Source of the DNA: a virus
Lineage: Duplodnaviria; Caudoviricetes
Length of the DNA stretch: 64,000 nucleotides
Virus record (IMG/VR): IMGVR_UViG_3300032038_000063
Location: 6,907 to 70,906 of that record
Direction: 5' to 3' (one strand)
Under the pieces are notes generated by a model. The model was not told the origin of the DNA and searched no databases. It was given only the letters and a program-made list of their open reading frames with translations. The first letter of the stretch is position 1. Each line of letters opens with the position of its first letter. This document shows, one piece after another, positions 6,793 to 25,842 of this stretch. A program made the translations under genes and the position numbers.

Positions 6793-7015
6793 GCGCGACC
6801 GTCCCAAGCAGCTCGACTACAAGGAGATTTTCGCCACGACAATGTACGAGATGATTTGCGAGATATTCCCCGCCCACGGAATCGAGCAGATGGACGAGGA
6901 GGAGTTCGACAAGATGGTGACGGAGATTACGCGCGAGCACTACTGGCCCATACTCGGCGAGTTCCGAAAGAAGAACGGGCTTAGTTTGACATCTGGCATA
7001 AGGTTCCGTTGGTAA
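6776..7015 (+). CDS. Hypothetical protein
   Basis: ORF ends just before a terminator. Confidence 0.55.
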   Translation: MASLIERDRPKQLDYKEIFATTMYEMICEIFPAHGIEQMDEEEFDKMVTEITREHYWPILGEFRKKNGLSLTSGIRFRW

Positions 7016-21540: not shown

Positions 21541-22038
21541 ATGAAAAGCCTAGAGAAGCTTAGGAAGGTTGCCGAGGAGCAAAGCAGCCCAGTCATGTGC
21601 AAGCTCGTGAGGGTATACACAGACCAAGACGGGATGTCCGCCGACAACAAATCCATCATGGAGGCTCTGGGAAACGCCATAGACGAGATAGAGGAGGAGC
21701 TGGCAAGATATTACGTGGAGCTTCCGAAAGACAGCGATGGGGTGCCAATCCGTCCAAATGACGAGATAGTGGTTAGCTATCCAGACACGGAGCCACAGCT
21801 TAGTACGGTAACTGCACTAATACTCAGCGACAGATGGGACTTCGAGCAATCGTGCTATGAAACGGACAGTCGTGACGTAAATAACCTCAGCGACTTCTAT
21901 GAACATGTGAAACACGTCCAGCCTGATTCATGGGAAAGCATCGAAGAGGACGCAAGGAAATGGATGTATGAGAACGGAACGCCATGTGGCGTCATGAACT
22001 TCATAAGCAGATGCAAGGCTCTGGAAGGTGTGAAGTGA
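21541..22038 (+). CDS. Hypothetical protein, paralog of 34235..34705
   Basis: MKSLEKLR ... LPKDSDGVPI. Confidence 0.6.
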   Translation: MKSLEKLRKVAEEQSSPVMCKLVRVYTDQDGMSADNKSIMEALGNAIDEIEEELARYYVELPKDSDGVPIRPNDEIVVSYPDTEPQLSTVTALILSDRWDFEQSCYETDSRDVNNLSDFYEHVKHVQPDSWESIEEDARKWMYENGTPCGVMNFISRCKALEGVK

Positions 22039-22244
22039 GCTACATAGACGAGAACAGCAATCTAAAGCCGTGTCCTTGGTGCGGAACGACGCTGGGATAC
22101 TACGCGAAGAAGTATTCTCTTGGCGTACCGTACTACAAGTTCGTACACAGCACGGAACGATGCAACATTACAGTCGAGACCGATTGGTACAGAAGCAAAG
22201 AAAAGTGTGACGGGATATGGAACGACCGAGCTGCCGTGTCATAG
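22035..22244 (+). CDS. Lar-like (restriction alleviation) zinc-ribbon protein
   Basis: LKPCPWCG...C...WN.RA; GTG start overlapping the upstream TGA. Confidence 0.55.
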   Translation: MSYIDENSNLKPCPWCGTTLGYYAKKYSLGVPYYKFVHSTERCNITVETDWYRSKEKCDGIWNDRAAVS

Positions 22245-22590
22245 GCTTTTTCTGCAACCAAAGCAAGAAGGGGAAGAGGTGACGAGAGATACCCGCATTG
22301 CGGGGCCATGCTCGCAAGAACAAAAGCGGGTGACTCCGACTCGATTTCATGAGGAGGTGTGGGATGAGCGAATGTACGATTCGTGAAATCGCAGGCTACG
22401 TCGCAATCACAATCATGACCGTCGCGGCGTTGTTTTCGATGAGGAGATAGCACTTTCATGAATACATCAACAAACCCACTTCGTTGTGATACAATTCAGA
22501 AATTGACGTATGGTTGCAGCTAACGTCCCAAACAGCCAAACAACCCCGATAGCTGCAACCTATCGGGGTTGTTTTTTATCGGAGGGAAGC

Positions 22591-24495
22591 ATGGCGGAGA
22601 ACTTCGGCTCGTTCTTCAGCGACGTGGGAGGCGGAGAGGGAGAGCGCTGCAACTACACTACCAGATTGGACACCTATGGATGCGGATGCGCCCATGACTG
22701 CCGCTATTGCGTAGACCCAGAAACCCTCGTGCTCATGTACGATGGCACTCATAAGCCTATTAAAGACGTACAGATAGGTGATGAGATTTATGGCGTGTCG
22801 TGGCAAGGCAATTACACGAAGTACACCTATGCCGTTGTGACCAATAAGCACATCACGTGGAAGCCGTCATACAGGATAGAGCTGGAAAACGGCACGGCCA
22901 TTGTCCGCTCTGGCGACCATAGATGGCTCACCGACAGAGGATGGAAGTACACCATCGGTGAGGAAACTGGCGAAGGCCGCAGGCCGCATATAACCATGAA
23001 CAATCGAATGATGGGTCTCTCACACTACGACTTCACGCCGTATAAGGAGAGCGAGCGTTACAGGGAGGGTTACATAGCTGGCGTAATGGAGGGAGACGGT
23101 ACCGTCCGTGAGTATCATTACGATGATGGCGACGTCTACCAAGTCAGGCTTGCCATGAAGGAATATTCGGCGGTCAAGAGGACGCGGAAGTACCTGAGTG
23201 GATTCGGAATCGAAACCCATGAGTTCTCGTTTCCCATGAGGGACCGTGACGGCAACGTAGTGGATACCGTAGCCATACGAACAAGCAAGCAAAGCGATTA
23301 TCGATTTGTACGTGGCCTGATAGATGCAAGAACGTCCCAGCCGACCGCAGGCGACGCCGACTATATGCGCGGATATCTCGGTGGAATCTACGACGCCGAA
23401 GGAACCTCCGACAAGTATATAAAGCGGATATTTAATGCCGATGACGAGGTCATATCCTATGTGTGCAAGTGTCTTGACGCGCTCGGATTCTCTTACACGC
23501 TCGACAAGGATGCCCAGCGAAAGAACTCGGTGGTAAAGACGATACGCCTCACTGGCGGCATCCAAGAGTCATTCAGGCTCATGCAGGTGATAAACCCAGC
23601 CATAAGGAGCAAGTTCACCTTAGACGGCGTCACGCTGAAGAATCCGTATGCGGGAGAACTCAAAGTGAAGTCAATTACTCCGTATTCGGATTCTCAGGAG
23701 CTTGTGGACATAACCACAACGACGGGAAACTTCATTGCAAACGGGTGCGTGTCGCATAACTGCTATGCAAAGAGCCTGCTGGACTTCCGAAAGAACTGGC
23801 ACCCAGACAGCCCACATGTGGCCTCCACTTCTGAAATATCGAAGGCACTACGCAAGGTCAAGAGGGGGCAAATCCTACGTCTAGGAGGCATGACCGACTG
23901 CTTCCAGCCATATGAGCGGATATACGGGGCCACGAGGCAGGCAATCCAGATGATGAACGCAAGGGGAATCGGATATCTCATAGTCACCAAGAGCGACCTC
24001 GTTGCGGAGAAGTCGTATTTGAGGATACTTGACCCAGAGCTGGCGCACATACAGATAAGCGTAACCAGCACAAGTGACGAGCCGAACTTCCTAGGCGAGA
24101 GAGCGCCGAAGCCAAGCAGGAGGATAGATGCCGCAAAGAGGCTCCAAGACCTCGGATATGACGTGCAGCTAAGAATAAGCCCATACATACCGAGGCTGGT
24201 TGACGTTGACGTGCTTCTGGAATCTGGCATGAGGAAGTGCCTCGTGGAGTTCCTTCGCGTCAACGGATTCATAAAGAAGTGGCTCGGACAGGCAGGATGC
24301 GCGACTTCCGAGTACACCTTCAAGAGCGGAGGGTACAGGCATTTGCCGTTGTGGAAGAAGAAAGACCTCATAGAGCCGTTCAAGCAGTTCGAGGAGCTGA
24401 CCGTATGCGAGGACGAGCCAATTGCATACGAATACTGGAAGGAAAGCGTAAACCACAACAAGGATGACTGTTGCAATTTGAGGAAGGAACTGTAA
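22591..24495 (+). CDS. Intein-containing radical SAM protein (SPL-like family) precursor
   Basis: GGAGGG RBS; CAHDCRY|intein|CYAK rebuilds CxxxCxxC; C-extein RLGGMTDCFQP, IVTKSD. Confidence 0.9.
   Translation: MAENFGSFFSDVGGGEGERCNYTTRLDTYGCGCAHDCRYCVDPETLVLMYDGTHKPIKDVQIGDEIYGVSWQGNYTKYTYAVVTNKHITWKPSYRIELENGTAIVRSGDHRWLTDRGWKYTIGEETGEGRRPHITMNNRMMGLSHYDFTPYKESERYREGYIAGVMEGDGTVREYHYDDGDVYQVRLAMKEYSAVKRTRKYLSGFGIETHEFSFPMRDRDGNVVDTVAIRTSKQSDYRFVRGLIDARTSQPTAGDADYMRGYLGGIYDAEGTSDKYIKRIFNADDEVISYVCKCLDALGFSYTLDKDAQRKNSVVKTIRLTGGIQESFRLMQVINPAIRSKFTLDGVTLKNPYAGELKVKSITPYSDSQELVDITTTTGNFIANGCVSHNCYAKSLLDFRKNWHPDSPHVASTSEISKALRKVKRGQILRLGGMTDCFQPYERIYGATRQAIQMMNARGIGYLIVTKSDLVAEKSYLRILDPELAHIQISVTSTSDEPNFLGERAPKPSRRIDAAKRLQDLGYDVQLRISPYIPRLVDVDVLLESGMRKCLVEFLRVNGFIKKWLGQAGCATSEYTFKSGGYRHLPLWKKKDLIEPFKQFEELTVCEDEPIAYEYWKESVNHNKDDCCNLRKEL
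22708..23760 (+). mobile_element. Intein (351 aa) with LAGLIDADG homing endonuclease
   Basis: N-terminal CVDPETLVLM, block B SGDHRWLT, EGYIAGVMEGDG and RGYLGGIYDAEG, C-terminal NFIANGCVSHN followed by +1 Cys. Confidence 0.92.
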
Positions 24496-24596
24496 TGTAC
24501 GAATGCTTTCACTGCGGTAAGAGAGCCGTCATATGGGGTGGAGACTTCTCGTTGGACGAATGGGAGCCAGAGACCGAGGAGAAGGGCGAAGAATGA
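24495..24596 (+). pseudogene. Possibly truncated small Zn-binding phage gene (MYECFHCG...)
   Basis: 33-aa ORF coupled to the rSAM stop; only one CxxC half is present, just before the GIY-YIG gene. Confidence 0.4.
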
Positions 24597-24627
24597 GACC
24601 CGTGCCAGAGTTGAAGGTGGTTAAGGT

Positions 24628-25248
24628 ATGTCGAGTAAGGTAAATTGGAGAAAGGCACAAGGAAGGCCGTGGGACATATATTCCATCACCAACCTTATAA
24701 ACCATAAGGTGTACATCGGTCAGACGAAACAGCGTCTTCAGACGAGGTTTTCACAGCACCTATGCCCAAGGAGCGCGTGTGGAGCACTTAGAGCAGCCGT
24801 AAACAAGTACGGCAAAGAAAACTTTGAACTCATGAAGATAACGACAGCCGCCACGCAAGAGGAGGCAGACATGCTTGAAAGGCTATGGATTCGCCTGTAT
24901 AGGTCCAATGACCCAAAAAGAGGCTACAACCAGACTGACGGAGGGCGTGGAAACGGCATTGGATTTACTGACGAGGTAAAGACTAGAATGAGCCATGAAA
25001 GGGTTGGTGCAAGGAACCCATTCTATGGTAAGCATCACTCTGAGGAATCGAAGCGCAAGATGCATGAATCACACGCTGGGCAACGTCACTATTGGCAAGA
25101 GAAACCAGTCGTCTGCATTGACACTGGAGAGCTTTTCGAGAGCATCAAGGAAGCAGCTTTAGCAAAGGGGTTGAACAGCGGAAAGATAGGCGATGTTTGT
25201 CGTGGCGCAAGGAAAAGCACTGGTGGCACTTATTGGAGGTATGCGTAA
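24628..25248 (+). CDS. GIY-YIG homing endonuclease with NUMOD3/NUMOD1-type DNA-binding repeats
   Basis: DIYSITNLINHKVYIGQT, GYNQTDGG, NPFYGKHHSEESKRKM, FESIKEAA. Confidence 0.9.
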   Translation: MSSKVNWRKAQGRPWDIYSITNLINHKVYIGQTKQRLQTRFSQHLCPRSACGALRAAVNKYGKENFELMKITTAATQEEADMLERLWIRLYRSNDPKRGYNQTDGGRGNGIGFTDEVKTRMSHERVGARNPFYGKHHSEESKRKMHESHAGQRHYWQEKPVVCIDTGELFESIKEAALAKGLNSGKIGDVCRGARKSTGGTYWRYA

Positions 25249-25842
25249 ATGAAACAGCAGGCACAGCTAAAGATTGACTACGTTCCAATCGATGACCTTT
25301 TGGAATATAGAGGGAATGCAAAGCTCCATCCATCAAGTCAAATCGACCAAATAGCATCTTCAATAGAAGAGTTCAATTTCAATAACCCGATTCTTGCATG
25401 GCACAACGAGGACGGAGAGCCAGAGATAGTCGCAGGTCACGGTCGTTTGATGGCTGCTCGCAAGCTTGGACTCCAAGAGCTTCCTGTCGTATTTCTCGAC
25501 CACCTCAGCGAGGAGGCTAGACGTGCGTACACCCTCGTGGACAATCAACTTACTATGAACAGCGGCTTTGACTTTGGAATCTTACAGAGCGAGCTGAATG
25601 AAATCGTAGGCATCGATATGGCCCAGTTTGACTTTAACGTTTCTTTGGATACTGTCGAAATAGCCGAAGACTACGGTGGCGCGGACGAAAACGACGAGGC
25701 ATACGCGCCGCAGTCGGATACGCACTTTAACTACAAGGAGCAATACGGCGTAATCGTCATGTGCGATGGCGAGGATGACCAAGAGCGCGTATACAACAGG
25801 CTTACCGAGGAAGGCTACACGTGCAAGGTGGTGGCCGTGTAA
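25249..25842 (+). CDS. ParB/Srx N-terminal domain protein 1
   Basis: NAKLH..QI.QIASSIEEF.F.NPIL..EIVAGHGRLMAARKLG. Confidence 0.9.
   Translation: MKQQAQLKIDYVPIDDLLEYRGNAKLHPSSQIDQIASSIEEFNFNNPILAWHNEDGEPEIVAGHGRLMAARKLGLQELPVVFLDHLSEEARRAYTLVDNQLTMNSGFDFGILQSELNEIVGIDMAQFDFNVSLDTVEIAEDYGGADENDEAYAPQSDTHFNYKEQYGVIVMCDGEDDQERVYNRLTEEGYTCKVVAV

Follow-up and report, generated by a model that had tools for sequence, protein, structure and literature searches.

A 351-residue intein interrupts the iron-sulfur motif of a radical S-adenosylmethionine (SAM) enzyme encoded by a virus of the Caudoviricetes (IMG/VR record IMGVR_UViG_3300032038_000063). The window, that is, the whole stretch of DNA analysed, comprises 64,000 nucleotides (positions 6,907 to 70,906 of the record) and makes up the greater part of a complete virus record of 70,906 bp, a 70.9-kb phage genome with direct terminal repeats. 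The insert at 22708–23760 on the plus strand, running from Cys1 to His350-Asn351, is a true class 1 intein with the HINT and two-motif LAGLIDADG architecture of an intein that carries a nested homing endonuclease, and it is the only intein in the phage genome. We consider it very probable that it is a selfish homing intein, recently gained by a phage gene for a spore photoproduct lyase (SPL)-like radical SAM protein. The insertion site itself is already catalogued and common, and the find is sound but ordinary.

The borders of the intein can be read directly from the DNA. The upstream junction, within 22699–22716, is TGC CGC TAT/TGC GTA GAC and the downstream junction, within 23755–23769, is CAT AAC/TGC TAT GCA; the 1053 nucleotides (nt) between them make 351 codons, with Cys first, His-Asn last and another Cys next. 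The extein flanks are C33-A-H-D-C37-R-Y before the intein and C-Y-A-K after it. Inside these borders, all on the plus strand, are an N-terminal splicing region at 22708–22944 (block A at 22708–22746, opening with Cys1 at 22708–22710, and block B at 22909–22944), a LAGLIDADG endonuclease core at 23059–23409 (motif 1 at 23059–23106, motif 2 at 23362–23409) and a C-terminal splicing region at 23701–23760, which consists of block F (…DITT.TGNFIANG) and block G (C-V-S-H-N). Cys1, Ser68, His71, the Asp of block F, His350, Asn351 and Cys+1 are invariant in an alignment of 39 homologs. A preliminary description of this DNA had placed the intein at exactly these coordinates and noted that both endonuclease motifs look intact. 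The coordinates are confirmed by the DNA, the invariant residues, Pfam and NCBIfam matches, the predicted fold and the empty homologs described below; as for the motifs, an acidic residue is kept in each (…GVMEGDG… and …GIYDAEG…) and the match to Pfam LAGLIDADG_3 (E 6e-11) scores 42.9 bits, above the cut-off of 22.5.

The NCBIfam model NF038136 matched the intein part alone with an E value of 1e-46, and Pfam Intein_splicing, Hint and Hom_end_hint scored under their cut-offs on the precursor. The precursor was modelled with AlphaFold2 from the 39 homologs, with a mean predicted local distance difference test score (pLDDT) of 87.8. When this model was searched with Foldseek, the TliVMA intein (E 9e-16), PI-PfuI and PI-SceI were returned with a probability of 1.00, and the endonuclease part resembled I-DmoI with a template modelling (TM) score of 0.77. 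Matches of this strength lie well outside chance. The scores of Intein_splicing and Hint below their gathering cut-offs, together with the dispensability of the gene in many phages, could be taken to mean that the intein has decayed and no longer splices, leaving the radical SAM gene a disrupted pseudogene. We find this very unlikely, given that the 634-codon frame runs without interruption, that every one of the splicing residues named above is present and invariant among the homologs, and that the precursor model is a confident one. In addition, the extein differs from that of an empty allele (L005) by 78 synonymous versus 19 non-synonymous codon changes, which points to purifying selection on the extein.

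A search for intein-free alleles had been suggested in the preliminary description, and such alleles were found. The C-extein retrieved 5314 relatives of 134–427 aa, the best of which (P0122) is empty, has the predicted spliced length of 283 aa and is 93% identical; other empty relatives are 92% (P0123) and 80% (P0125) identical. When the exteins were joined in silico, the product was collinear with P0122 and differed from it at 19 of 283 residues. On a human-gut phage contig (MT835521, L001), a 278-aa homolog reads ...C-Q-H-D-C-A-Y-C-Y-A-K-S-L-L... with nothing inserted. These four and a fifth empty homolog, P0039, rejoin as ...C-x-Y-C-Y-A-K/R with zero extra residues, and the alignments place an insertion exactly at the junction. 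Other homologs carry at the same point either a full-length intein (total length about 630–680 aa) or a mini-intein (about 420–450 aa), so that the site shows the homing cycle in each of its three states, full, mini and empty.

These alleles also bear on the idea that the segment is a non-splicing domain, either of the Hint or bacterial intein-like (BIL) type or a nuclease inserted in a loop, that is kept in the mature enzyme. Radical SAM proteins with large insertions do exist. In this case, however, the third cluster ligand would sit 351 residues away from the first two, the borders carry the full intein signature of Cys1, His-Asn and Cys+1, the empty alleles rejoin without a single residue left over, and the closest matches in structure are to genuine splicing inteins; a retained domain is accordingly the least credible of the explanations considered, and we regard it as extremely improbable.

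Splicing in silico yields the motif C33-A-H-D-C37-R-Y-C40. Since none of C33, C37 and C40 varies among 52 empty homologs, Cys+1 is the third cluster ligand; the proposal that it is the third Cys of CxxxCxxC is borne out by the intein-free alleles, which read C-x-H-D-C-x-Y-C-Y-A-K. In the mechanism that we favor, a 351-aa class 1 intein with a LAGLIDADG endonuclease would have entered between Tyr39 and this third cluster Cys. Splicing would start with an N–S acyl shift by Cys1, after which the thioester would be attacked by Cys+1, the future [4Fe-4S] ligand; cyclization of Asn351 would then complete the reaction, and the joined extein would regain C-A-H-D-C-R-Y-C. As far as sequence can tell, all residues appear to fit this canonical class 1 pathway. 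The freed intein could then cut empty alleles at the reconstituted site and copy itself into them by gene conversion during co-infection.

We characterized the host protein from its exteins. The C-extein matches Pfam Radical_SAM. Because a search of the PDB with the P0122 sequence found no significant relative, we turned to a fold search, which assessed the SPL-like fold on this empty, 93%-identical protein in place of the spliced sequence of the window itself. The P0122 model (pLDDT 88.4) gave its best match to spore photoproduct lyase (4fhc; TMq 0.64, E 5e-7), with PFL-activating enzyme next. Against NF038136, the window precursor scored 217 bits where the cut-off is 700, with the match limited to the intein and a short stretch of extein, which places the window protein outside that family. 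NF033668 (PA0069), NF038135 (Rv2578c) and TIGR04470 (radical SAM mobile pair B) gave 60, 37 and 44 bits, respectively, with the precursor and 76, 48 and 57 bits with P0122, against curated cut-offs of 360, 430 and 410 bits; by these scores they are related families and not that of the window protein. At its C-terminus, the empty allele P0039 carries a second, fused region that is radical SAM-like, and in L137 (1001–3600) a gene of the type of this second region adjoins a member of the family. Both arrangements fit the weak match to the 'radical SAM mobile pair' model TIGR04470.

The distribution of the intein among close relatives suggests a homing element. Among the best 80 IMG/VR alleles, 77 are empty, one has an intein and two are unresolved. 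Intein-bearing alleles were found only at 44–57% identity to the window in the extein, and the nearest kin (92–93%) are consequently all empty. It had been argued that the insertion implies strong selection on the radical SAM protein. That argument is not supported by these counts, since an intein that is sporadic and missing from relatives 92–93% identical shows the pattern of a selfish homing element. A single gain in the window's lineage would be the economical reading of these alleles, and we infer that the gain was recent and took place by homing.

A mosaic tract of high divergence surrounds the insertion site, with an upstream arm of 45 nt (22663–22707) and a downstream arm of 126 nt (23761–23886), both on the plus strand. 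From –45 to +126 nt from the junction, 51 of 171 positions are mismatched to L005, compared with 69 of 681 elsewhere (Fisher 9e-10; 0/200 permutations), and the changes in the tract are mostly synonymous. L006, the 80% allele, was too divergent to serve as an outgroup for deciding in which of the two sequences, the window or L005, the tract had changed. A megablast search with 24.5 kb of the window against deposited phages gave no match. Downstream of the site, L005 and L007, which are the closest of the empty alleles, read C-Y/F-A-R-A-L-L, as opposed to C-Y-A-K-S-L-L in the window and most relatives, and both have several codon changes across the site. These variants at positions +3 and +4 may be endonuclease-resistant targets.

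Some of the evidence weighs against a recently gained, active element. Divergence within the mosaic tract is likewise raised between two empty alleles, L005 and L007, which makes the tract a conversion hot spot and not proof of one gain event. The G+C content of the intein (51.6%) is close to that of the phage (52.6%), so its composition carries no sign of foreign origin. The donor is unsampled, there being no close intein relative in IMG/VR and the nearest anywhere being 49% identical. Block B reads S-G-D-H (intein residues 68–71), with Ser in the place of the Thr of T-x-x-H that most inteins show, though both this Ser and the His are invariant in the clade. Lastly, splicing and cleavage activity are predicted from conserved residues only.

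The position of the intein raises the question of whether it has been domesticated as a switch. A disulfide between Cys37 (Cys–3) and Cys1, or binding of a metal or Fe-S cluster by C33, C37 and Cys1, might delay splicing, and with it activation of the enzyme, until conditions are reducing or iron-replete. The necessary Cys(–3)-x-x-Cys1 layout is present as C37-R-Y-C1, and the same layout is reported to block splicing of the Pyrococcus abyssi MoaA intein under oxidation (PMC3922620, PMC10663303). The precursor moreover keeps a full CxxxCxxC, in which Cys1 stands as the third Cys; with C33-xxx-C37-xx-C spelled out before splicing, the earlier statement that no cluster can form until the intein is removed was too strong. 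It is also general knowledge that radical SAM clusters are oxygen-labile. We nevertheless rate the switch as unlikely, because the layout follows automatically from landing just before the third Cys and needs no adaptive explanation, because relatives 92–93% identical work without an intein, and because the endonuclease motifs look intact, as they do in a mobile element and not in a fixed one. That only one of the 80 best viral alleles has an intein likewise speaks for selfish homing over domestication.

The preliminary description called the insertion site uncommon, and here the literature, the databases and our surveys contradict it. Novikova et al., 2016 (PMC4760082) give 48 inteins in their Table 1 for SplB/COG1533, the 'DNA repair photolyase' radical SAM proteins, and a dedicated NCBIfam model, NF038136, exists for intein-containing radical SAM proteins. 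A literature search returned nothing that joins an intein with CxxxCxxC or with Rv2578c. In a bacterial survey covering one genome per prokaryote species, 527 relatives were obtained; of the best 80, which were assessed, 77 carry a 338–349-aa intein at C-x-x-x-C-x-x/C. These 77 bacterial genomes span 10 phyla, and Microbulbifer magnicolonia and Trebonia kvetii are among the cultured carriers. When the intein by itself was used for an exhaustive search, 2090 cluster representatives were obtained at E ≤ 1e-3, and about 50 of 56 full-length intein relatives sit at the same motif position, CxxxCxx/C, which is the usual home of the clade.

The hosts of these inteins belong to the Radical_SAM, DUF5131, B12-binding radical SAM and SPL families and form nine extein groups that are unrelated by BLAST. 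In a quick maximum-likelihood tree built from the inteins, the host groups are intermingled (18 label changes versus a minimum of 8), and the window intein groups with P0025, from its own family, and P0244, from another host type (SH-like approximate likelihood ratio test, SH-aLRT, 96). P0095, of the Rv2578c type, is 47–54% identical to the window in the splicing regions and only 23–31% identical in the extein. The clade thus appears to live almost only at CxxxCxxC, across many radical SAM families. A few members depart from the rule: Ser replaces Cys1 in P0267; in P0247, a B12-binding radical SAM protein, the intein lies before the second motif Cys (...G-C-P-Y-R/intein/C-N-F-C); and P0389 and P0391 have related inteins whose hosts show no CxxxCxxC at the junction. 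The whole set also gave single Pfam matches for epimerase and helicase domains, which are not linked to particular proteins. Two further candidates were set aside. A related intein (H2) lies in a gene of virus Rctr197k named 'radical SAM protein-like'; the translation looked like a helicase-type host and was not used. The related intein in MT840030 (H3) is in a phage protein that is not a radical SAM protein and is irrelevant to the site.

A bolder proposal can be built on this clade: that a motif-specialist lineage of inteins has spread repeatedly among unrelated radical SAM families by inserting in front of the third Cys of CxxxCxxC, that Cys(–7), Cys(–3) and Cys1 form a mock cluster site in every precursor of the clade, and that in this phage this site gates splicing through a disulfide, a metal or an Fe-S cluster. 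If true, the intein would be a gate that works after translation and controls, in the course of infection, a radical SAM enzyme that acts on DNA. Taken as a whole we think this improbable, and continue to prefer selfish homing as the explanation.

The gene that hosts the intein most likely starts at ATG 22591, judging from sequence features, and not at 22510. An open reading frame on the plus strand, 22510–24495, is open across 661 codons. We place the start at 22591 because of the N-termini of homologs, a ribosome-binding site and a hairpin inside the longer frame: the homologs begin at M-A-E-N-F-G-S-F, which matches ATG 22591; GGAGGG at 22581–22586 lies 5 nt 5' of this ATG; and a terminator-like hairpin of the upstream unit (22555–22572), followed by a T-run, falls within the longer frame. 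The hairpin and ribosome-binding site together occupy 22555–22586 on the plus strand. All three features speak against 22510, which was rejected as the start; automatic annotation from there could add 27 spurious N-terminal residues to the radical SAM protein. From ATG 22591, the precursor has 634 aa and the predicted spliced product 283 aa. The N-extein (22591–22707, plus strand, 39 aa) is collinear from end to end with intein-free P0122/L005; its cysteines are C31, C33 (22687–22689) and C37 (22699–22701), the last two being the first two Cys of CxxxCxxC. The C-extein (23761–24495, plus strand) comprises 244 aa (23761–24492) and the stop codon, opens with Cys+1 (23761–23763) and contains the SPL-like radical SAM barrel.

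The locus also harbors another mobile element, independent of the intein. This is a free-standing GIY-YIG/NUMOD3 homing endonuclease gene (24628–25248) between the radical SAM and ParB genes. Just 5' of it, at 24495–24572, are the first 23–26 codons left of a 55-aa CxxC...CxxC zinc-ribbon-like reading frame, which is whole in L005 and L007; the homology of the window DNA to these two ends at 24586. L007, the empty allele with 92% identity, has an arrangement of its own at 506–1470. Codons 1–33 of the radical SAM gene, which end at the first motif Cys, come first; next is a gene for a 246-aa GIY-YIG/NUMOD3 endonuclease, and after it the N-terminal coding sequence occurs again, in a more divergent form, and runs into the full gene. 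This layout looks like an endonuclease cassette bringing its own replacement 5' end.

The neighbors of the radical SAM gene encode a Lar-like protein, the GIY-YIG endonuclease, a ParB_N protein, an ATPase/GNAT protein (phrog_11143) and a formyltransferase. It is part of a gene string at 21984–31986, in which two ParB_N proteins are encoded at 25249–25842 and 29566–30156, and this string may be a DNA-modification module. In relatives, the neighboring genes include QueC (L005) and Vut_1 (L006), from which we considered a role in 7-deazaguanine (DpdA) modification. No TGT/DpdA is encoded in the complete phage genome.

Taken alone, the window contributes a further intein allele, from an uncultured phage, at a site already catalogued in bacteria. 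It does offer an intein that is contiguous and, from its sequence, apparently active, with a [4Fe-4S] ligand as its +1 nucleophile, and the 93%-identical empty allele is both a natural control and an endonuclease target; this intein-plus/intein-minus pair is a clean system for studying cluster, metal or redox control of splicing. The occurrence of one clade in Radical_SAM, DUF5131, B12-binding and SPL-type hosts also bears on how inteins move between non-orthologous genes, and may deserve a survey.

The closest known systems are the SplB/COG1533 inteins, given for Actinobacteria by Novikova et al., 2016 (PMC4760082), and those of NF038136 proteins. They share with the window the point of insertion (G-C-x-H-x-C-x-Y/C ... 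S-H-N/C-Y/F-A-R/K), a homologous intein (E 1e-46; 47–54% identity in the splicing regions), the LAGLIDADG type and a similar length (338–349 aa in bacteria versus 351). In contrast to NF038136, described as an 'intein-containing Rv2578c family radical SAM protein', the host in the window is a different, phage-borne SPL-like branch, whose extein is only 23–31% identical to the Rv2578c type, and in the intein tree the PA0069/Rv2578c inteins form a clade of their own (99) apart from the window intein. The intein of P. abyssi (Pab) MoaA (Callahan et al., 2011, cited from the reviews PMC3922620 and PMC10663303) is redox-sensitive through extein Cys–3 and Cys1, the oxidised C-x-x-C being able to lock the first step of splicing. 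Like the window intein, it sits in an oxygen-sensitive iron-sulfur enzyme, and C37-R-Y-C1 has the same Cys–3/Cys1 layout; the likeness covers these two residues only, as given in the two reviews. Pab MoaA differs in its archaeal host and its radical SAM family, and the redox control shown for MoaA could extend to the window by analogy only. In structure, TliVMA and PhoVMA (7qsu, 7qss, 7qst), PI-PfuI (1dq3) and PI-SceI (1vde, 1ef0) share the HINT splicing domain and, nested in it, a LAGLIDADG endonuclease of two motifs (Foldseek E 9e-16 to 1e-11), but at 11–17% identity and in V-ATPase or ribonucleotide reductase (RNR) hosts, and the window intein, at 351 aa, is the smaller.

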